From the NCBI GenBank assembly GCA_963575745.1, contig CAUYUJ010000214.1, positions 248,001-312,000 of the forward strand: a stretch of DNA of 64,000 nucleotides. Reading direction: 5' to 3'. A program made the translations under genes and the position numbers. Every line of letters starts with the position of its first letter. The first letter of the stretch is position 1. Under the pieces are notes generated by a model. That model was not told where the DNA came from. It searched no databases and worked only from the letters and a program-made list of their open reading frames with translations. The stretch comes from Prorocentrum cordatum (taxonomy: Eukaryota). Below, one piece after another: positions 1,438 through 30,571 of this stretch.

Positions 1438-2557
1438 CTGATGATGATGCTGCTGCTCACATCATAATGGTGCAGATGCTGATGCTGATGATTACTATGA
1501 AGCTGATGCTGATGATGATGCTGATGCTGATGATGACAACGATGATAACGACGATTATAACGATGATACTGCTGATGATGCTGATGATGATGCTGATACT
1601 GCTGATGATGGTGATGTTGCTGATGCTGCTGATGATGATGTTCATGATGCTGATGATGATGCTAATGATGACGATGATGATGCTGCTGATGATGATGCTG
1701 CTGCTGATTTTGATGATGATGCTGATGCTGATGATGCTGCTGACGATGATGATGATGCTGATGATGATGCTGACGATGCTGATGATGATGCTGCTGCTGA
1801 TGATGATGCTGCTACTCATAATGCTGCTGATGATGATGACGATGCCGATTATGATGACGATGCTGATGCTGCTGCTGATGATGCGGATGACGATGATGAA
1901 GATGCTGAAGCTGATGATGCTGATGATGCTGCTGCTGTTCATGATGATGGTGCTGAAGCTGATGCTGATGATTATTATAAAGGTGATGATGGCGCTGATG
2001 ATGATGATTCCGACGATGTTAACGATGATGCTGCTGATGATGCTGCTGCTGATGCTGATAATGCTGATGCTGACTATGTTGCTGATGCTGATGATGATGC
2101 TGATGCTGACGCTGCTGATGATGCTGATGATGATGCTTCTGCGGATGATGGTGATGCTGATGATGCTGCTGATGATGCTGCTGATGGTGATGAGGCTGCT
2201 GATGGTGATGATGATGCTGATGACGATGATGATGCTGATGCTGATGCTGATGCTGATGATGATGCTGCTGATGATACTGCTGCTGATGCTGATGCTGATG
2301 ATGATGCTGATGATGATGCTGATGCTGATGATCATGCTGCTGATGAGGATGATGATGATGATGATGATGACGATGATGATGATGATGATGATGATGGTGC
2401 TAATGATGATGACGATGATACTGCTGCTGCTGATGATGATGCTGATGATGATGATTCTGCTGATGATGATGATGATTATGATGATGATTATGCTGATGAT
2501 GATGATGATGACGATGATGATGATGATGCTGATGATGATGATGATGCTGACGATGCA

Positions 2558-2591
<34 letters not shown>

Positions 2592-2597
2592 CTGATT

Positions 2598-2640
<43 letters not shown>

Positions 2641-2641
2641 C

Positions 2642-2708
<67 letters not shown>

Positions 2709-3125
2709 CTGATGCTGATGCTGCTGCTGCTGCTGATGCTGCTGCTGCTGAGGAGGAGGAGGAGGAGGAGGAGGAGGAGGAGGAGGAGGGAGGAGTGGTG
2801 GTGGTGGTGTGGTGGTGGTGGGTGGTGGTGATGATGATGAGGAGGAGGCGGCGGGAAGGTGAGGAGGAGGATGAGGAGGGGACGGTGAGGAGGAGGAGGA
2901 GGAGGAGGAGGAGGAGGAGGAGGAGGAGGAGGAGGAGGAGGAGGAGGACGAGGAGGAGGAGATGGAGGAGGAGGAGGAGGAGGAGGAGGAGGAGGAGGGA
3001 GGAGCGAGGAGGAGGAGGAGGAGGAGGAGGAGGAGGAGGAGGAGGAGGAGGAGGAGGGAGGAGGAGGAGGAGGAGGGAGTCGGAGCACGAGGAGGAGGAG
3101 GAGGTTGTGGTGGTGGTGGTGGTGG
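781..3125. repeat. Compound microsatellite: (GAG)n, ~1.65 kb degenerate (GAT/GCT)n, then (GAG)n/(GGT)n
   Basis: Visible trinucleotide runs; source of the poly-D/M/E/R ORFs. Confidence 0.97.
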
Positions 3126-4045
3126 TGAAGCGATATCGGGCGGGCCGAATGTCTTGTCAAGACCACATAGCTGTGAGCGTGGGCAACATGCAGCCACGCG
3201 CGACCGATGGTGCGCAGGCAATGCGACTTAGCACAGCCCGCCCCCCAGACGAGGTGGAGCCCCAATTTGTCATTGCTCGACCCCGGGATCGAGGCTACCA
3301 CGAATTTCGCACAAGCGAGTCGCTGAGGCTCGGGGCCCAGGGCCCAACTCAAAAACTGATAGCGTAGGCTACAAGGTCCTTGAAGGAGGGGGGGGACGAG
3401 GAAGGAGGCCTCGAAGGAGGAGGAGGAGGAGGAGCGGGAAAGGCAACAGCAGCGGCGGCACACGGGGCCTCCGCGAACAGGGGCGTCACGGGCACGTCCC
3501 TCTCACCTGACGCTGAGGCTCGTGCCGTCGGCTCCACTCTCCTCATACACGTCGGCGGAGCAGAACTCTGTCTCTGGAATCCCGTCGTGGCGGAAATCGG
3601 TGCCGACGTGGTAACCCTCCTCATAGTCACCTGTGAAGCAGTACTGGTCATCTGCAAACTAGAACTGGGACTCTGAAAACTCGAATTTAGTGGTCGCGTA
3701 GCTGCTGCCACTAGTGCCCGCACGATGCCCTTCTCATCCTGCACGCTTCTATCCCTCGGAGCCCCCGGCACGATGCCCACATCATCCTGCCCTCGAGTCT
3801 CGTCGGATCCGCAAAACTGCGACGACCTGGATTGTTCGACCTAACGCCAGCGAGCCCCCCTCCCGTCCCTCCACCAGGGTAGCGCTCAGCAGAACTCATG
3901 GCCTCCTCATCGCCCGATTCTCTCACTCGGAGGGAAAGGGAGCTGACGACCTTATCATCGCTACGGTCGGGGGTACTCGCGCGCCCGCAAAACTGCGACG
4001 GAACCTGGGCAGCCATCTCCTGGATGTGCGCTCTAACGCCCGATT

Positions 4046-4621
4046 TCACAGTTCGGGATCGTCCAGCGCCAGCTGGAGCAGCCTCTCGGTGTGCGACCTT
4101 GGAGCCATGCCAGGTCGAACTTCCCCTCCTAGCTGCACTACGCACTCCTGAAACGCCCTCTGCATGTTGGGATCCGGCAAGCTGCAGACCATCTTCGCCA
4201 GCCCTTCCTTGTATGCGCTGCTGACACGGAACCCCTTGATGAGCATCGTTGGGTCCGCGATCGAGTTCGTCTCGTCGAGGCGCTTCTGATGATCTGCCCA
4301 CTCTTTGGCGTTACGGCCTCCGACCTTCTCGCCCGCTTCGGACACACGGCGAGCCACCACCAGGAAGACTTGCACGCACGCTTGGCCCATCGTCACCTCT
4401 GGTAAAGGCTTGCTCGGGTCGCGCTGCCGCTCGTCCCTCATCCTCGCCACCTCCGTCGCGTACGCCCGCCCCGCCTGGAAGCCCGACTTGATCAGATCCG
4501 CCTCCTCGTCCATCGTGTTAGTCACGAACTCCGCCGCCAGCAGCATCCGAATGTTGAAGGACTTGCCGAGGACCGCCCTCGTGAGCACAGGGAGCAACTT
4601 CGCGCACATCTGAAGGTCCAT
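4046..4621 (-). CDS. Hypothetical helical protein downstream of the zinc fingers (frame open from 5071)
   Basis: Complex, protein-like sequence MDLQMCAKLLPVLTRAVL...GMAPRSHTERLLQLALDDPEL*; no recognised domain; start codon uncertain. Confidence 0.55.
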   Translation of the reverse strand: MDLQMCAKLLPVLTRAVLGKSFNIRMLLAAEFVTNTMDEEADLIKSGFQAGRAYATEVARMRDERQRDPSKPLPEVTMGQACVQVFLVVARRVSEAGEKVGGRNAKEWADHQKRLDETNSIADPTMLIKGFRVSSAYKEGLAKMVCSLPDPNMQRAFQECVVQLGGEVRPGMAPRSHTERLLQLALDDPEL

Positions 4622-5430
4622 GCTCGGCAACTTGGACAGCGCACCCGCTGGCAGGCCGTACGACTGCCCGACCTCTCGCCGATCGTCCCTCTGCCTTGCT
4701 GGCGCCGCAGCCGCTGCGTGGCCGCGTGGAGCCTGCGCGGGCTGCTGGTGCTGGCGTCGCTCGCCGCCTGCTGGAGCTTGGCTGCGCTGCCCGTACCGCC
4801 TGTGACCGCCACGCGCACGGGAAGCGGCTGCCGAGCCAGATCGGCCCCTTCTCGAGCCTGATCCCCCACCTCCGTGCGACCTCGAACGATGGGCGGCTGC
4901 CTCGAGTGCCTCGACTCCCAGGCGGTACATCAGGCCCAAGGCAAGTGAGGGGAACTCGAGGAGAGTGCCGACGCAGGTGAAGATAACGAGCAGCTCGATC
5001 CTCAAACGGCTCCGTACGGTTACAACACATCGCAGGGGCCCCAACGACGTTGCCCCTAGAGATCGTCGCACGGGAAAGGTCAGCCAGGGGGCACCAAAGG
5101 CTCTCGGGGTCCAGGACGGGGTGCTGGAACGGGGTGACGTACGGGGGACACCTGCCTTTCAGGACCGCCTGCACCGCATGCTCTTGAGCGATACGCCTTG
5201 TACGAAAGCTCTGCCCACAAACAAAACACTCGTTAGTCACGGTGAGGGTGTGCAGTACAGGCCTACAGGAGTGCCCACCACCTTTAGAGAACCGTTGATG
5301 GGCAAGAAGGGCACGCCTAGTCGTGAAGATCCTCCCGCAGACCGTCCCCTCCGAGTTCGGCAGGTCGCACTGCCAGATCGCCGCCCGCAGTGGGGGCACC
5401 TCGAGATCACCTTCGGGGGCCTCGTGAGGA
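4046..5430 (-). mobile_element. LINE-like 3' end: C2H2 zinc fingers followed by an overlapping extra ORF
   Basis: ORF 4518..5765(-) has CDLPNSEGTVCGRIFTTRRALLAHQRF, CFVCGQSFRTRRIAQEHAVQAVLKGRC and a third YLHLRRH finger. The architecture parallels the RT-bearing element at 8723-10915. No RT is seen in this copy. Confidence 0.55.
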
Positions 5431-6961
5431 TCAGGAGAGGGGCCATACAGCCCTACAGGAGGAGGGATAGCCACCATCAGCGTAGCAGCCCTCAAGATAC
5501 CAGGATCCAGCGCCCGAGACTGTTCCCGAATATCATGATCCAAGGAGGTGGAGCGGAGGGGGGGAAATGGCAGGTGGTGGCGGAGGATGGGGAGGGGGAG
5601 CTCATGATTTTGTGAGGGCGGCGTGCCCATGAATGTCTCGACGGCTTCTCCTCCTCTTCCCATTCCTCCTCCACCCCCCTCTCTCCTTCCTCCTGCCTCT
5701 CTCCTGGTTCTGTCGCCCCTTCTCCAAACGCCTGTTCCCAGGCGCCCGTGGCGCACCAGTGTCATTCTCGATGTGACCGTCGCATCAGTCTCTGGCCAGG
5801 GGCAGTCATTCTTGCCTCTGCGTTGCCGATTTCGAGTTGCAAGGGTGAAAGAAGTGCGTGACCAGGGTACATCAAAGACGATAATTAAGGATCACGTCGG
5901 CTTTAGGAGGGGCTATGTTTTTTTGGCCGTTCCTTAGACATGGGCTGGGGAACCCATTCGTGACCGAGGCTTGCCGTTGTCAGAAACTTCCTTTCGTTCC
6001 TTATCTGGCCTTTCCCATCGCATCACGATGGCTGCGCTCGCGAGTAGTCGTCGAACGTGCGCAGGATTTCGCGATGATGGCAGGATGATGGTAGGGCCAG
6101 GGAGCCGACCATGTTTCGGTGCCTCGCCGTCAGCGATGTTCCAGCGCCCCTCTCTCGTGGTGAGGAGAATCTGGGCGGACGGTCTCTGCCAGTCTTCGTA
6201 CTCTGGGGGCCCTCGCCAGGCCTCGGCCCCGTCAAACAACTGCTCAGGAACCCCGGCCCTGGGGAACGGGTCGGGACTGCAGGGGCTTCGGTGCCCGAAA
6301 GATCAAGACGTCGGGGTTCTGGGGGGGGAGGCGGGCAGGACGAGGTCCGGGGCGACGGCTCGCACGAGGGCGGAGAGGAAGAGACGGAGGATTACGATCG
6401 CAGAGGGAGGGGGAGGAGGAGGGGGAGGAGGAGGAGGAGGAGGAGGAGGAGGAGGAGGAGGAGGACGAGGAGGAGGAGGAGGAGGAGGAGGAGGAGGAGG
6501 ACGAGGAGGACAAGGAGGACGAGGAGGAGGACGAGGAGGAGGATGAGGGGGAGTAGGAGGGGGGAGGAACAAGAGGGCGCCAGCTATAGAGCAAGTTTCG
6601 TGTCAGCTTCCCGTCGCGCGGCTTCCCGTCGCCCTGGCATGCACTATGACAACGAGAAGTTGACCCTCCAACGGGATGATTTGAGAATGCCTCCACGCCG
6701 CGGTTACTGACCACGAGCGCCTTGTGTGGGCAGATGTCCCTCTTCGCCTTGCAGACTCCCAGACTTGTCCTGGGCTGCATCCTGGCTAGAATTTCACGGG
6801 GGATCCAGCCGTTGCCACGAGGGCGCCGCGGGAGGCCCAAGGACGCGCGGAAGCCTCGATCTTCGAGCCTCGATCCGCGAACTTCGAGCCTGGGTCCTCC
6901 GCGCAGTAGCCTCCGCGCCGAGTCCCAGGCCCAAGCCGCCGAGAGCTCAGCCCGAGAGGGC

Positions 6962-8141
6962 ATGGACGCCCGCGTCGCGCGACCACGCGACATGGCGCCG
7001 CGCCGCGCCGCGCGCGCCGCGGCTGCGGCGGCGCCAGCCGCGGCGCTGCTGGCCGGGTGGCTGCCGCCCGCGGCGGCGCGCGGCCCGTGGGCGCCGGCGC
7101 CGCGTGGCGCGGCGGCGGCGGCGGCGCTCCGGCCCGGCGAGGCGCACTGGCGGCGCCGCCGCGCCGCGGTATGCCGCAGCAGGGCGGCCGCCGATCGCTC
7201 GGCGACCTTCGGCGGCCCTCCTTCGGCCTTCGGCGGCGCTGCGGCCTGGCGAGGCGCTGGCCGCGCCGTGGACCCGGCCGCGGGGCTGCCAGACTGGCTG
7301 GCCCCGGCCGCGGCGGAGCGCCGCCTGTGGGCGCGGCCGGGCCCCTCGCGGAGGGTGTGGGGCGCGCTGCGCGGGGGCGGTGCGGCGGGCAGGACGCTCG
7401 CAGAGGCGCCGCCGGTGCGGCTGCTGGAAGGCGTAGTCGGCGCCGACGGCGCCGCAGAGCTGCGCGCGGCGGCGCTGTTCGACGCGGTGGGCCCACAGCG
7501 CCGCCGCGAGCCCGCGGGGGTGCCCGCGGCGGTGCCCGCCGCCGCGAGGCTGCGCGCACGCCTGGCGCAGGCCATGGGGCTCGAGGAGGCCTACCTGGAG
7601 CCCATGCGCATGGTGCGCTACTGCCGGCCCGGGGACACCTTCGAGCCACACGTGGACTGGACCGTGGACCCCTCGGACACACAGCTGGCGCTGCTGGGGC
7701 AGCGGGTGGCGACGGCGCTGGTGTACCTGGGGGACCTCCCCGCGGGCGCCGGCGGTGAGACCTGGTTCCCGCAGCTCGGCCTCTCCGTGGCCCCGATGGC
7801 GGGGGCGGCCCTGGTGTGGCCGAACGTGGACGCCGGGGGCAGGCCGCTGCCGGAGACGCTGCACGAGGCGCGCCCCCTCGTGGCCGAGGGCGTGGAGAAG
7901 GTTGCGGTCAACGTCTGGGCCCGGGACATCAGGGGCGGAAAAGGTACGGGTACCGCTACTCTTCCTTCGTTTTTGCCTTTTTGGGCCTCCTTCGAGGCCC
8001 TCGTCGCCACCGCTGGATTCACCTCGAAATCCTCCCCCGGAGAGGGGTCTGGGGAGTAGCCGCATCAGTAGCTCCTGGTTCGCCCAGGACAGGCCCCTGC
8101 CCACGGACGCAAAGGTCCTGTCGGGGCTCTACCTCTCGTGA
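6962..8141 (+). CDS. Prolyl 4-hydroxylase-like 2OG-Fe(II) dioxygenase; predicted exons 6962(or 6992)-7924 and 8088-8141
   Basis: Motifs LEPMRMVRY..GDTFEPHVD (HxD), GQRVATALVYL, GGETWFP, ALVWPN, LHEARP (distal His) and EKVAVNVW (2OG-binding Lys). Splicing gives a P4H-like end VWARDRPL...YLS*. Ala-rich N-terminus may be a targeting peptide. Confidence 0.88.
7925..8087 (+). other. Predicted GA-AG intron, 163 nt, phase 0
   Basis: cgg|GAcatc...gcccAG|gacagg with a junction direct repeat gccc(g/a)ggaca; removal restores a family-like C-terminus. GA donors are known in dinoflagellates. Confidence 0.65.
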
Positions 8142-8350
8142 AGGACTGGGGAGAGGGGCCCTCCGGCCGCCCGCAGGGCCCCGCGGCGGGGGGGTCGGCT
8201 CCAAGGGCGCGCTGTCCGACCGCGCAAAACCAGCCTCGCAACCGACAGTGTGGAGGGCGCCGCCAGCTGCCCACAGGCATCAGCCCATGGCCAGGCCAGT
8301 CCCGGGCCCGGGTATCGCAGGACATGCCCGCCTGGGGCGCCCCAGCGAGG

Positions 8351-8404
8351 GCCGCGTCTCTCAGGCATCGGAAGGGTACCCTTCCGATGCCTGAGAGACG
8401 CGGC
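8351..8404. repeat. Perfect 54-bp palindrome
   Basis: gccgcgtctctcaggcatcggaagggt|acccttccgatgcctgagagacgcggc. Confidence 0.95.
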
Positions 8405-8722
8405 ATGCCAGCGTTGGCATGTCTTCCCCGGCGGGAATCCGGCGGAGGGCGGCGGAGGTAAAACGGCGGCGGCTCCGCTGGCGGAAGCCAGCGGATGGCT
8501 GGCGGAAGCCGGCGGAACACATTTTTTGGGAGTGGCCCTGGGAGTTTGGAACGGGCCACCTGGCTTGGCAAGGCGCGCACGCACGCACACACACAGACAC
8601 ACACACACACACACACACTTTTAAGCGGTAGCGGCCTCGCGCGCAGCGACGAGACGGAGTAATGCACGCAAGCACGCACGCACGCACGCACGCACGCCTT
8701 CACACGCACACGCCCACATTCG

Positions 8723-10915
8723 CACAAGTTTCTAGATGACCTTCTCACGTTCACGGAAGTTGACGAATTCGATGACGCCTCCACTTTCTTGGAAATTATC
8801 AATGGTGAGATTGGGCATGGCGGCATGTACATCAACGGGCAGAAGACCGAACTTCTCCTGATACCGTCGGGGGTGGGTAGCAAGAAGAGGCAGAAGCGCA
8901 TCAGGGCTCGTACGATAGGTATTGGCACTTGGCAATGCGAAGACTGCTTCTCGATCCACCCTCAGCCGACGGTTAGTACCTAGGCGTGCAGCTGGCAGCC
9001 ACTGGCAGCTACCAGATCGAGGTGACCCACAGGATCCAAGCGGCGAGCACGGCCCACGCTAGACTACTACGACGCGCCTTTCGTAGGGGGTTTAGCCCCA
9101 AGCAGAAGATCAGACTGTGGAAATCTCTGGTGCGTTCAGTTTGCCTGTGCTGCCTGGAGGTGGCGAATCTTTCCCCAAGCGGGAGCTAGTGCGACTGGAA
9201 GCATGGCAAGTTCGCACATCCGAGGGCTACTTCATTCACCAGCACACCGCACAATAATACCAACCGCGAGATCAGGAAGTCGGCCAGAGTCTCCACCGTG
9301 GAGAGCACCATTTTGAGGAGGCGGCTGAAATGGTGGCGCCAAGTACCATGACCAGTTTTTCGTGAGTCCGCAGCAGAACTGTACGACCCGACCCGTGCTG
9401 TGCGCGCTATCATCCTTGGCAGACTCTCTTTTGAGAGTGCGACGCCGGAGGGGCCGACGGTCATGCTGGCCGTTTTGAAAGAGGACATGCGACATTTGTG
9501 TCTGACCTATAAGGCCCTCGAGCAGCTCGAATCACGACGTCGCTACCTACTGCATGGAGATTTCCCAGAACTGGCCAGGTCATGGTTAAAGTGGCTGGCC
9601 TCTTTGGGGTCGAAAGCTATCGCCGAGAGTTCACTCTTGGCGACGCTACCTCTGCGACGGAACCACCTGCTGATGTGTGGTTGGACTGTGATGTGCGTGT
9701 GTGTGTGTGTGTGTGTGTGGGGGGGGGGGAAAAGTGCAAAGGAGGGAAGGGGCTGGCCAACCACAAACGTGCCGTCCATCAGGTGCATGCGAATTCGACA
9801 GCGATGATCCTCACTGATGACTGTTTGAAACAAAAAAGATGCCCCCACTGCGCTAAACACTTCACGACGAATGATACGCTGGTCAGGCACACCATTCATG
9901 GTCGATGTACTGCCCGTCCCGAAGGCGTTGAGGCTCAAGGTGTGCCGGTGGCAGCTCCAGGCCGCGCGTTACCGCTAGCCCAGCTCGGTGCTGCAGCGGC
10001 CGGCCCAGATGTTCGAGCCCACTTGCGAGGTGCAGGCAGCGAGCAGCAGCGGCCAGGAGCGGCCGTCGGCGGCCGTGGTCGGCGCGGGCGAGGACAAGGT
10101 CGAGGGCGACGTCGTGGGGCCGCTCGGCAAGGCGCTGGCGCGACTGGCGCCGCAACGCGAAGACATGGCGAGGGCAGCCCACCGCGACGACAACTTCGTG
10201 ATGAAACTCGAGCCGATGAGCAAGCTGGAGACCGCGCTGGACCAGGCGTTTACGCACTGCGAGGACGAGGGCCGCAAAGCCAAAGAGAAGTCCAAGGAGG
10301 AAGGGGCTGTCTACATGGGCAACCCGCCGGGGAAGCGCCCAGACGCCCTGGCGAAGGCGGTGATCTTCCGCATTGCGGAGCCGGTGGGGGGACAAGAAAG
10401 AGCAGGTGATGGCGGCGGCCGAGCGGGGCTCGGGCCCGGCATGGGCCATGGAAGCGCTGGTGGCGCTGATCAGCATGGGCAGGAAGGTACAGGGCCCTGC
10501 GGCCAAGTTCGCGGTCGCGCGTTGCTGCAGCGCGAAGACAGGGCAGCCGAAGGGCGACGAGGACGTGCATGAGGACAGCGAGGTCAGGTGGATCTTCGCG
10601 CTCAACCACTGCCCAAAGTACAGGCTGGCCCTGACTGTGCTCCGCGAGAATGGCGCGCTCGCAGCTGCGGGCATTCACCTCGCACGCGACATCGCGACGA
10701 GGAGCGGGGCCGCGAAGATGGCGGAATCGCTCGCGTTCAAGGGCGGCCCGAGCAAGCAGACGGGGGGAGAGGAAGCAGAAGCGGAAGTGAGCGGGGCTAG
10801 CAGAGACAGAGTACAGAGAGTGTCGAGGTCTCGTTACTTCCCTCCACGTTCGATCCCTCCCCGTCCGGGCCGTCCCCGACCCCCTCCTGGATAGACGGCG
10901 CTCTCTAAGTAAGCA
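8723..10915 (+). mobile_element. 5'-truncated decayed non-LTR retrotransposon (RTE-like RT C-terminus, C2H2 fingers, extra 3' ORF)
   Basis: KFLDD (8726-8740), INGQKTELL, YLGVQLAATGSYQIEVTHRIQAASTAHARL, KQKIRLWKSLVRSV, RRRLKWW, and fingers ...GLANHKRAVH and CPHCAKHFTTNDTLVRHTIHGRC, with stops and frameshifts. Possible taagtaag tail near 10907. Confidence 0.8.
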
Positions 10916-11394
10916 CTTCAGTTTTGGACCTCGGGGCCCCGCCCAGTTATTTCAAGTGGTGTTGGGGCCCCGTTTTCTCGAGGTCAGTTTCCGGGCCGCT
11001 TCGCGGGGGCTGCGCGCCTCCGCCGGGGGGGGGCGGGGGGGGGGGGCGCCCCGCGGTGCGGCCCCCGCAGAGGTTAGGGTGCGCGGGCGGGGCTGCGGCG
11101 CGTCCGCCTTCGCCTCCTCGCGCCTTCCTTCCTATAGGGCGCCGTCCGACTTCGGTGTGCGCCGCGATGTTCAGCGGTTGCTTTTTTTTCATTGCCCCCG
11201 CGGAACTTCCTTGGGAGTAGGAGTGGCGTCCAACAAAAGGAAGTCGCATCGCCTCTCCAAGAGGCGACGCATTTTTTCGGGGCGGCCTTGGGCGTCTGGA
11301 ACGGGCCGCCTGGCCTGGCGAGGCGCGCGCGCAGACACGCGCGCGAGCGCTTTTGAGCGGTGGCGGCTTCGGGCGCGGCGACGAGGCGGAGTGG

Positions 11395-12325
11395 CGCGCC
11401 CGCGCGAGCGCGCCTGCGCGCGCCCGCGCCCGCACTCGCGCGCGCGCACGCGCGCGCGCGCACGCGTGCGCGCATGCGCACGCGCGCACGCACATGCGCG
11501 CGCACACGCACACGCGCACTCACACACGCACGCAAATGCAAACGCACGCGCGCGCAAACGCGCGCGCGCACCCGCGCGCGCACGCGCACGCGCGCACGCA
11601 CGCGCGCGCGCACAAGCACGCGCACACGCCCACGCACACTTACACGCGCACTTACATGCGCACTCGCACGCACTTACATGCGCACGCGCACGCGCACGCA
11701 CGCGCGCGCGCACGTACACGCACGCGCGCACGCGCATGCACGCCCGCGCGCACGCGCGCGCGCGCACGCACACCCACGCGCACACGCACACGCACGCGCA
11801 CGCACGCTCGCACACGGACGCGCGCACGCACGGGCACGCGCACGCGCGCGCACTCGACCACGCACACGCGCACGCGCACGCACGCGCACGCGCACGCGTA
11901 CGCACACACACACACGCACACGCGCACGCGCACGTGCACACGCACGCTCACACGCGCACGCACACGCACACGCACACGCACGCGCACACTCGCACGCGCA
12001 AGCACACGCATGCGCACGCGCACGCGTGCATGCACACACGCACGCGCACGCGCACGCACACGCGCGCGCGCGCACAGGCACGCGCACGCGCACGCGCGCG
12101 CGCGCACACGCACGCGCGCGCGAAACCGCGCGCGCATTCGCGCACGCGCACGCGCGCGCACGCGCACAGGCACGCGCACGCGCACACGCGCACGCGCGCG
12201 CACACGCACGCGCGCGCGAAACCGCGCGCGCACTCGCGCACGCGCACGCGCGCGCACGCGCGCGCACGCGCATGCGCACCCTCACACGCACGCGCGCGCG
12301 TGCGCGTGTGCGTGCGCATGCGTGC
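11395..12325. repeat. ~930-bp alternating purine-pyrimidine (CG/CA)n tract
   Basis: Near-continuous gcgc/gcac/acac alternation. Confidence 0.95.
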
Positions 12326-13159
12326 GCGGGGGGGGGGGGGTCAGCGCCGGCGCAGGCTGCGCTGAACTACGCTGAGCTGAAGCTGGGGGGGGGGGGCAGC
12401 CCGGAGCTGCAGCTGGCGGCGATGCGAAAGCGAAGCGGGGCCCAACCCTGGATCGAGCGCTGCCCGGGGAGAGGCCAGGGCATCGAGACCGGCGGGCCTG
12501 CGAGGTGCGTGCAAGGAGAGGAGGCCAAGCGGTCCAACCTCAGCGGCAGGCGCTGCGCCGCGGGCGCGAGGGGGGGCGCGGGGCGCAACGTGGCGGGGGC
12601 GGGGGCCGTGCAGCCAGGGGCCGGGCGGATGGGGTTGCGCCCGACCCAGCGGGCCGAGGCCTGGCCCAGGGAGAAAGCGAAGCGCCGAGACCAGTGGGCC
12701 TGCGAGGCGCAGTCGCGGGGGCGACGGCCGGGGAGGCACCGCCCAGGAAGAGCGAACCGAGAGCGGCCGAGAGAGGGCGGCGGGAGGGCGGTCGGCGCGA
12801 GCGGCCAGGACCTCGAGAAAAGGCGGTGAAAGCGCTGCCCGCAGTCGTGCACCGGCCAAGGTCAGCGCCCAGGGCCGCGGGCATCTCGGTGCTGGAGGCT
12901 ACCGCCTCGAAGTGTCTATTGCGCGGTCACGCGGAGACCGTCCGCGAGGCTGTGCGACCCCCCGCGGGCAGGCGGTTGGTCGCCCAAGGCGTCCGAGGAG
13001 TATCTGGGCCGCCCCGCCGCTTCCTCGGTCACCGCCCGGCGGACCGCGCGTCCGCGCGCGCGCGTGTGGCGCGTCGACATCTTGTGCGCCGCTACCGTCG
13101 CGCGCGATGTGCATTGGGTGGTTCGGCGTCGTCGGGTGCAGCGTTGGGGGTCGCGGCGG

Positions 13160-14007: not shown

Positions 14008-14029
14008 TCCGTAGCCATTTTGGCTCAAG
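14008..14029 (+). other. Perfect DinoSL spliced-leader relic
   Basis: tccgtagccattttggctcaag matches DCCGTAGCCATTTTGGCTCAAG 22/22 and lies 42 nt upstream of ATG 14072. Confidence 0.95.
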
Positions 14030-24940: not shown

Positions 24941-26797
24941 GTGATGTTGATGGGGTTGGTTGGGGATGGGGATGGGGATGGCACTGAAGATGTTTAGGAC
25001 GCCGATGGGGCTGGGTGTCAGGAAGCGCAGGTGTCTTGGACCTGATTATGGCTAGGATGATGATTGCGCTGATGTGAATGCGTATGATGGTGGTGGTTGC
25101 GGGGGTGGTGAAGATGACGATTGTGACGGGGAAGATGCTGATGCGGCTGATGATGCTGATGGGTATGATGACCATGGCTGCGATGATGAGAAGGTGGATG
25201 CATATTGTGATGCTGGTGATGATGGTATTGGTGTGCTGCTGCTGGTGATGATGATGAGGAGGACGAGGACGAGGACATGGACGAGCACGAAGGTGATGAG
25301 GTTGACGCTGAGTGTGAGGACGATGCGGTCTGGGGAGGAGGATGAGGACGATAATGTGGATAAGGAGGACGCCGATGAGGATGAGTGGCAGGACGCGTAT
25401 GGGTCCAAACCATGATGGTGGCTATAAGGAGGATGGTTATGATTATGCTGCTGCTGTTGTTGTTGTTGTTGGTGTTGGTGGTGGTGATGTTGATGATGAG
25501 GATGCGGATGATGAGGATGATGATGATCCAGCTGAGCATGAACCTGATGCTGCTGATGGTGGTGATAATGGGTAGGCTGAGGACGATGACGAAGGTGATG
25601 ATGCTGACACTGATGCCGATGATGATGGGGAGGTTGGATGGGGAGGGGGATAAGGATGCTAATGGGGGCGATGCGGACGCCGATGAGGCTGGGTGTCAGG
25701 ATGCGAGCGGGGTCGATTATGCTGATGGTGCTGATGCTTATGCTTATGCTGATGCTGGTGCTCATGCTGGTGCTGATTCGATGCTGTTGAGGATGGTGGT
25801 TATGATGCTGGTGATGACGATGCGGAGGAGGAGGAGTGCGGCTAAAGAGGGCACGGCGGATGGTTGACGCATGGATGCAGTGGTGGATGAAGGGCCAGAG
25901 GAGGATGCCAGATGATGAGAATGAGGAGGGAGCAGACGAGAGATTGCTGCTTCTTTTTGATAGTGCTTCCGAAGACGACGATGATATTGCTGCTGCTGCT
26001 GCTTATGATGCTAAGGGTGCTGAGGATGATGACGACGAGGCTGATAATGATGAAGATAATGATGATGGTAATGATGGTAATGATGATAGTGATGATGACG
26101 TCGTGATTATGATGCTGCTGATGATGCTGATGAGGCTGATGATTATGATGCCGATGCTGATGTCGATGATGCCGATGACGAACGGTGGCGACACCGACGA
26201 TGATGCTGCTGCTGCGGATGCTGCTGCTGCTGATAACGACGAGGACGATGTATGATGATACTGGTGATGACGCTGATGATGATGATACTGATGCTGATGC
26301 TGATGCTGACGATGATGATGATGATGTTGACGACGACGGCTATCATCATGGCCATGGCGATGACGGTGACGATAACGATAAATATGATGACGATCATGAT
26401 TATGATGATGCTGATGATGCTGATGATCATAATGAGGATGCTGCTGCTGATGATGAATATGACGATGACGATGACGATTGCGATGACGATGACGATGGCG
26501 ATGACGATTATGATCATGATGATAATGAGGATCATTAAAATGCTGATGTTGATGATGATCATGAGGCTTACTACTCAGTTGGCGATGATGATGAGGAGGG
26601 GGAGGAGGATGACAATGTTGTGGTGGATGCTGTTGTTGTTCTTATTGTTGTTGCTGTTGTTGCTGCTGACGATGCTGATACTGCTGCTGCTGATGATGAT
26701 GCTGACGATGATGACGATGCTGATGATGCTGATGCTGATGATGTTGATGATGCTGATGCCGATGCTGATGATGATACTGTTGTTATTAGTGTTGTCG

Positions 26798-30549: not shown

Positions 30550-30571
30550 TCCGTAGCCATTTTGGCTCCAG
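30550..30571 (+). other. DinoSL spliced-leader relic, one mismatch
   Basis: tccgtagccattttggctccag (21/22), 56 nt upstream of ATG 30628. Confidence 0.92.

Follow-up and report, generated by a model that had tools for sequence, protein, structure and literature searches.

We analyzed a 64,000-nucleotide stretch of the Prorocentrum cordatum genome (assembly GCA_963575745.1, contig CAUYUJ010000214.1, positions 248,001 to 312,000 of the forward strand), a piece of GC-rich, repeat-rich eukaryotic DNA that we refer to as the window and number from its first letter. Two parts of this window, element 1 on the minus strand and element 2 on the plus strand, resemble the 3′ ends of long interspersed nuclear elements (LINEs). 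The 3′ end of a LINE behind its terminal zinc finger is normally noncoding. In both elements, a coding-looking open reading frame (ORF) lies directly behind the terminal zinc finger: ORF A in element 1 (4046–4930, minus strand, 294 codons plus stop) and ORF B in element 2 (10009–10894, plus strand, with its first ATG at 10009, its stop at 10892–10894 and ~293 codons when one +1 shift is allowed).

A six-frame regular-expression search for C-x2-4-C-x12-H-x3-9-[HC] returned 6 matches in the 64 kb, and the only two fingers ending in Gly-Arg-Cys (GRC) were the terminal C2HC fingers of element 1 (5148–5228, minus strand) and element 2 (9840–9908, plus strand). Pfam zf-C2H2 scored below its cutoff of 25.2 bits in both cases (element-1 fingers: E = 0.008, 17 bits; element-2 finger: E = 0.02, 15.8 bits), and in a feature search of a protein atlas the element-1 finger region adjoined C2H2 clusters at 0.95. 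The layout given in a preliminary description of this DNA, a GRC-ending finger followed by an ORF in both elements, holds by regular expression, by translation and by codon-position GC.

Reading element 1 along the minus strand, an RCPHC motif in another frame stands ~30 nt upstream of a first finger-like motif (5271–5369), whose C-x9-C-x12-H-x8-H spacing is atypical, and the terminal finger follows. The ORF A frame opens at a TGA overlapping the LK codons of this finger and stays open from 5158 to 4046, or 370 codons from stop to stop. Its upstream part (4931–5158) encodes a hydrophobic stretch without an ATG and aligns weakly with the N-terminus of the protein P0007. The start of ORF A is probably the ATG at 4930, which gives the 294 codons. 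Element 2 begins with a decayed remnant (8723–9345, plus strand) whose three-frame translation moves through three frames with stops and contains F-L-D-D, G-x-x-I-N-x-x-K-T and a thumb-like stretch ending in RRRLKWW, which, reading by eye, we take to be reverse transcriptase (RT). A linker without a Pfam match (9352–9690) leads from the remnant to the fingers, the first of which is broken by a (TG)n(G)n microsatellite (9692–9730). Behind the terminal finger, the plus-strand frame is open in two pieces, 9979–10572 and 10364–10894. The frame with high GC content at third codon positions (GC3) switches at 10360–10390, which points to a single 1-nt indel in the G6 run at 10386–10391 as the break in ORF B.

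ORF A starts ~220 nt and ORF B ~100 nt past the respective finger, and by coordinate arithmetic the starting frame of each is +1 to that of its finger, as had been described. We give this shared offset little weight because there are two possible offsets and the odds of agreement are 1 in 2; moreover, the element-2 offset means little given the several frameshifts upstream in that element. Length is likewise no evidence, as this GC-rich window holds 115 stop-to-stop ORFs of at least 200 aa. Codon-position composition is more informative. GC at positions 1/2/3 was 0.64/0.43/0.82 in the ORF A core, 0.71/0.46/0.89 in the first piece of ORF B and 0.65/0.50/0.86 in the second, so that GC3 exceeds GC at position 2 by 0.38, 0.43 and 0.36, respectively; these values place both ORFs in the top 4–5% among the 300-nt frames of the window. 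The tail of the element-2 finger frame reads 0.88/0.72/0.48, as expected off-frame, and codon-position GC is flat in the noncoding flank behind ORF B (10895–11266, plus strand). The finger frames themselves stay open across the ORF starts, to 4518 in element 1 and to 10409 in element 2. Because the first codon position of the finger frame coincides with the GC-rich third position of a real gene, stops are rare there, and base composition gives the simplest explanation of the overlap.

ORF A encodes a real protein. Three homologues match its C-terminal 206 aa over 100% of the query, at 66, 53 and 51% identity, each a stand-alone protein (210, 323 and 212 aa) with its own Met. A family profile hidden Markov model (HMM) matched ORF A at E = 8 × 10−54 over profile positions 15–231 of 242 (hmmsearch), and a search of 1.84 billion cluster representatives with an ORF A profile recovered 175 clusters at E ≤ 1 × 10−3, 39 at E ≤ 1 × 10−10 and 8 at E ≤ 1 × 10−30. 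Full-length members are mostly ~200–290 aa long and carry the domain at their C-terminal end; none of 1062 longer candidates matched, which is weak evidence against fused longer forms. Three of ten relatives looked up were named, two as 'unnamed protein product' (Prorocentrum/Polarella) and one as an MMETSP transcript; family entries include CAK0799434.1 and CAK0900786.1 of Prorocentrum cordatum, and the label Polarella glacialis occurs as well. Complete family proteins of 210–250 aa were found on contigs of only 895–1382 nt, which, together with the MMETSP transcript, fits short independent mRNAs. Pfam assigned no family to ORF A and matched none of 20 family members, and no function has been described for any member.

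Taken together, these data describe a large, dinoflagellate-specific and mostly basic family of ~210–250 aa proteins, in which a disordered N-terminus rich in Arg and Lys precedes a core of ~190 aa. The median isoelectric point (pI) of the family is 9.1, with 68 of 77 full-length members above 8; that of ORF A is 10.0, and that of its Arg/Ser/Gly-rich N-terminal 88 aa is 12. Unlike the family members, the window copy carries this region as a long N-terminal extension. ORF A and the family share the C-terminal motif G-x(5)-G-x-A-P-R-S-x-x-E-R, and the MYRL..LEAA..RSRS with which ORF A starts matches an M[YF]RL..LEAA..RSRS pattern near the N-terminus of P0007 and P0027, although the M[YF]RL stretch begins the protein only in P0027. 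We also observed that several close relatives, P0007, P0159 and P0036, carry an N-terminal hydrophobic, signal-peptide-like stretch; a conserved [FY]-R-L comes directly after it, and then a region rich in Arg and Ser. The same hydrophobic stretch, which resembles a targeting presequence, is present without an ATG at 4931–5020 (minus strand) of the window.

Structure prediction, proposed in the preliminary description for both ORFs, was informative for one of them. The AlphaFold model of ORF A (AF2, 105-sequence alignment) had a mean predicted local distance difference test (pLDDT) score of 82.8 and a predicted template modeling score of 0.72; means of ten-residue blocks were 94–98 over residues 101–290, and the N-terminus was disordered. 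The modeled core is a confident alpha/beta domain of 206 aa with no clear fold match among solved structures. The single-sequence AlphaFold model of ORF B (10391–10891) reached a pLDDT of 47.9 and is unusable. ORF B has a pI of 8.9 and found no relatives among 429 candidates, the full-protein scan having used the ORF A profile only and one ORF B piece (P0002) never having served as a database query, while its 374 pattern matches in metagenome contigs yielded no confirmed case.

ORF A and ORF B are alike in position but have no demonstrable common ancestry. The preliminary description had aligned the two by eye and suggested one conserved, homologous accessory ORF in both elements. Colinear motif pairs are indeed visible, yet they fail BLASTP, HMM, hhalign and shuffle controls, and no statistical test supports a shared ORF. 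BLASTP of ORF A against each ORF B piece gave best E values of 0.68 and 8.9. The profile–profile alignment that had been suggested was null throughout: hhalign probabilities for the two ORF B pieces were 0.43% and 0.15% with a 4-sequence family alignment and 0.17% and 0.10% with the 105-sequence alignment. A 104-sequence profile scored −0.3 bits against ORF B with its pieces joined by X (hmmsearch), a score matched by 139 of 498 scored shuffles, and hhalign of the family core against the same joined sequence scored 13.2, as did or bettered 53 of 200 shuffles. The best local hhalign match between the two was not colinear with the motif pairs seen by eye. Searching ORF B against all 154 family proteins gave best E values of 0.15 (phmmer) and 8.8 (blastp).

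Within the window, ORF A has no further copies by tblastn. The family HMM applied to 1048 six-frame ORFs matched only ORF A and 25818–26252 (E = 0.0017), and we rejected the latter as a relative since it is a low-complexity, Asp/Met-rich stretch. The 3′ flank of ORF A (3461–4045, minus strand) contains two copies of the 15-mer GTCGCAGTTTTGCGG, at 3985–3999 and 3809–3823 (2 matches versus 0.12 expected); we considered this pair as a spliced-leader relic and dropped the idea, as it resembles the leader only loosely. Simple repeats follow downstream of ORF A from ~3460 to ~1450.

We then examined the boundaries of the elements. By blastn, element 2 is flanked by two copies of a repeat unit, R: an upstream copy followed by an (ACGC)n-type microsatellite (8517–8722, plus strand) and a downstream copy (11267–11392, plus strand) followed by ~1 kb of (CGCA)n-type microsatellite reaching ~12350. 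The copies are 84% identical between 8520–8583 and 11270–11333 and 86% identical between 8618–8660 and 11350–11392. The block at 8723–11266, which extends from the RT remnant through the fingers and ORF B to the end of a 370-nt flank, is thus bracketed by direct R copies of 140–200 nt (8517–8660 and 11267–11392), suggesting a joint arrival of the RT remnant and ORF B. Around element 1, we found no direct repeats of unique sequence, only (GGA)n tracts, and we identified no short target-site duplication at either element. No endonuclease (EN) of the APE or REL type matched by Pfam in the ORFs around either element, an absence that is compatible with LINE origin because it is expected if the copies are 5′-truncated. 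The 3′ flanks of the two elements share matches of 8–9 nt only. Kilobase-long simple-repeat tracts lie 3′ of both elements (GAT/GAC/GCT-type and (GGA)n at 1448–3500; (CGCA)n/(CA)n at 11350–12350), and these could be element tails or preferred targets.

No sequencing run contained more than 0.19 of the sampled words, and the contigs of four runs, all short, were aligned to the window. Run X11 held diverged copies of both ORFs, differing from ORF A at 23 of 244 letters (4318–4561) and from ORF B at 28 of 208 (10541–10748). Among the single differences listed, a subset of the total, 10 of 18 in ORF A and 4 of 7 in ORF B were synonymous, which hints weakly at constraint. From run X1, identical contigs span 8762–9685. 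Among the contigs listed, those at least 85% alike from three of the four runs, including polyA RNA, lie over roughly 9.8–10.27 kb, a GC-rich stretch that permits no conclusion on transcription of ORF B; ORF A is covered by no RNA-run contig, which is no evidence of silence.

Several neighboring features were recorded alongside. A spliced gene lies between the elements (6680–8221, plus strand; GC3 0.965), where contigs of both X1 and X20, the latter a polyA-RNA run, connect 7923 directly with 8087 and omit 163 nt; by eye its protein resembles a 2OG-Fe(II)/prolyl-hydroxylase-type oxygenase, but Pfam returned no match. Inside its intron, ~80 nt at 7950–8033 reach a summed contig depth of hundreds to thousands in all four runs, with many loose contig ends on both sides; this is a short repeat of very high copy number. 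At 8351–8404 lies a perfect 54-nt palindrome whose 27-nt arms meet without a spacer. On the plus strand, the 21-nt spliced-leader motif of dinoflagellates has an exact copy at 14009–14029 and a copy with one mismatch at 30551–30571, with 0 expected in shuffles; these copies may be leader relics left by retroposed genes, or genes for spliced-leader RNA. Together with the Prorocentrum and Polarella names among the ORF A relatives, the motif marks the DNA as dinoflagellate.

The explanation we favor, while holding it tentatively, is that the window contains two old, 5′-truncated and decayed 3′ parts of different dinoflagellate LINE-like retroelements, each with a different downstream gene. Under this explanation, the polymerase gene of each element would end in C2H2/C2HC fingers closing on GRC, and a separate gene of ~290 codons would begin in another frame, ~100 nt further on in element 2 and ~220 nt in element 1. 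The downstream protein may act as an accessory nucleic-acid-binding partner, in the role played by ORF1p, and may be translated from its own short mRNA rather than from the long ORF2 message. The simplest source of such an mRNA in a dinoflagellate would be trans-splicing of a spliced leader onto the element transcript upstream of the ATG. From sequence, we infer rather than observe the LINE identity of element 1, the co-mobility of the ORFs with RT, and the function and mode of expression of the encoded proteins.

A number of observations weigh against this explanation. The RVT_1 match in element 2 is at E = 0.22–0.24, with 11.5 bits against a cutoff of 29.6, albeit at the expected end of the profile (positions 150–194 of 205), and the thumb piece has no sequence match in the PDB at E ≤ 10. 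Element 1, as noted in the preliminary description, has no visible RT, and Pfam finds none in nearby ORFs. Six-frame blastp detected no significant similarity between any parts of the two elements; its best matches were a 12-aa stretch at E = 0.016 and the RCPHC stretch at E = 0.044. We retrieved no independent case of RT and zinc finger followed by an ORF A relative; a search of contigs for ORF A relatives gave 87 pattern matches in metagenome contigs and 11 in viral contigs, none of them confirmed. The window ORF A also lacks the Met found just before the core in its three close homologues, and its hydrophobic N-terminal stretch lacks the ATG, unlike P0007, so this copy may itself be defective. 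Composition points the same way: ORF B has a GC content of 0.67–0.75 and a GC3 of 0.86–0.89, compared with 0.47–0.60 and 0.58–0.70 in the RT and finger part, with a step at ~9900, and ORF A has a GC3 of 0.82 compared with 0.67 in its finger region. Finally, the 886 nt of ORF B contain 1 disruption, and the RT part, counted by eye, at least 6 in ~1190 nt, a gap in density that is marginal by our own Poisson estimate. The host-like composition and the disruption gap would also fit host or captured genes lying beside dead elements.

The strongest competing account, which we consider unlikely though it draws on several of these points, is that ORF A (perhaps ORF B too) represents an ordinary dinoflagellate host gene or retrogene present in multiple copies, which came to lie beside a dead finger element by chance or by 3′ transduction. 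Both ORFs have a host-like high GC3 that contrasts with the finger and RT parts, members of the ORF A family are known as stand-alone proteins, gene models and one transcript, element 1 is without RT, and the window is full of repeats and of relic spliced-leader motifs marking retroposition. This account would leave unexplained why a single window shows this order twice, at similar spacing and with unrelated ORFs, behind what are its only GRC fingers. Furthermore, both ORFs lack an upstream spliced-leader relic, the motif being confined in the window to 14009 and 30551, and the direct repeats bracket element 2 and ORF B as one block.

A second alternative makes ORF A and ORF B true homologues, descended from one ancestral 3′ accessory gene and diverged past the reach of sequence methods. 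Their common position and starting frame offset, their sizes (294 and ~293 codons), their basic pI values (10.0 and 8.9) and the several motif pairs that are colinear by eye would all suit it, and LINE accessory proteins evolve fast. Nevertheless, every test was null, including the shuffles and the comparison with 154 family members reaching down to ~20% identity, and the best local hhalign match fell off the line of the noted pairs; we regard such homology as improbable.

Still less probable is that ORF B was originally an in-frame C-terminal extension of the element-2 ORF2, thrown out of frame by decay. Several frameshifts and stops already mark the 1.2 kb that lead up to the finger, which makes a further indel plausible within the 100 nt separating GRC from the ATG, and no stand-alone ORF B relative turned up among the 429 candidates or in the metagenome contigs. 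Against this, composition changes abruptly at ~9900, a TAG at 9976–9978 lies in the ORF B frame between the finger and the ATG, and its counterpart ORF A can be shown to be a protein of its own. An in-frame ORF2 tail, named in the preliminary description as a case that would undo its proposal, is thus excluded for ORF A by the three stand-alone homologues and survives for ORF B alone, because the element-2 copy is riddled with frameshifts. It is very improbable that each ORF is the ORF1 of a neighboring tandem element rather than a 3′ gene: head-to-tail insertion is possible for LINEs that have microsatellite tails, and a tail-like repeat and microsatellite stand directly before element 2, but Pfam found no EN or RT gene behind either ORF (in the ORFs near the elements or in 96 further window ORFs, which gave nothing at E ≤ 0.001), which argues against an ORF1 of a next element, and downstream there is only a flank of ~370–590 nt with flat composition and then 1–2 kb of simple repeats.

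If the two ORFs do belong to their elements, the nearest known counterparts are the ORF1 proteins of LINEs, such as L1 ORF1p, a nucleic-acid chaperone of non-LTR retrotransposons. ORF1-type accessory proteins are of non-homologous types in different clades. Like them, ORF A and ORF B would be small basic accessory proteins whose genes adjoin EN/RT in a non-LTR element; unlike them, the present ORFs lie downstream of RT and fingers instead of upstream, and Pfam detects no RRM, CCHC or coiled-coil in ORF A or in 20 members of its family. ORF A also differs in having no clear fold match, and RNA binding may be proposed for it by analogy. Among dinoflagellates, SymbioLINE and SymbioLINE-Dnmt of Symbiodinium are described as having conserved 5′ and 3′ untranslated regions, no poly-A tail, 3′-biased transcription and an extra gene, DNMT, which forms the upstream ORF1 (de Mendoza et al. 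2018, PMC5890265). By that description, to which our comparison is confined, they too are dinoflagellate LINEs with an unusual extra gene, which is upstream there and downstream here. The terms 'ORF3', 'zinc finger' and 'downstream' have no occurrence in the main text of that article, and the result listings of a full-text literature search contained no description of a dinoflagellate LINE with a downstream accessory gene.

Should the ORFs prove to be only host genes beside dead elements, the finding would be an ordinary one, and what would be left is a family of unannotated proteins whose confident model has no clear counterpart among solved structures. A broader proposition, which we put forward as doubtful but possible, is that dinoflagellate LINEs carry an exchangeable accessory module behind the polymerase gene rather than in front, with different lineages bearing unrelated basic proteins of ~290 aa at one position just behind the terminal C2HC finger. 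One such module would be the ORF A family, which numbers at least 175 clusters and has a fold without a solved relative; it would be expressed as its own spliced-leader-capped mRNA of ~1 kb cut from the element transcript. If the ORFs are part of their elements, dinoflagellates would possess LINEs with an inverted gene order and a swappable 3′ accessory gene, and a large unannotated dinoflagellate protein family would gain a function by context. Dinoflagellates trans-splice all their mRNAs, and such elements would raise the question of how a second cistron is translated in an organism where this is so.

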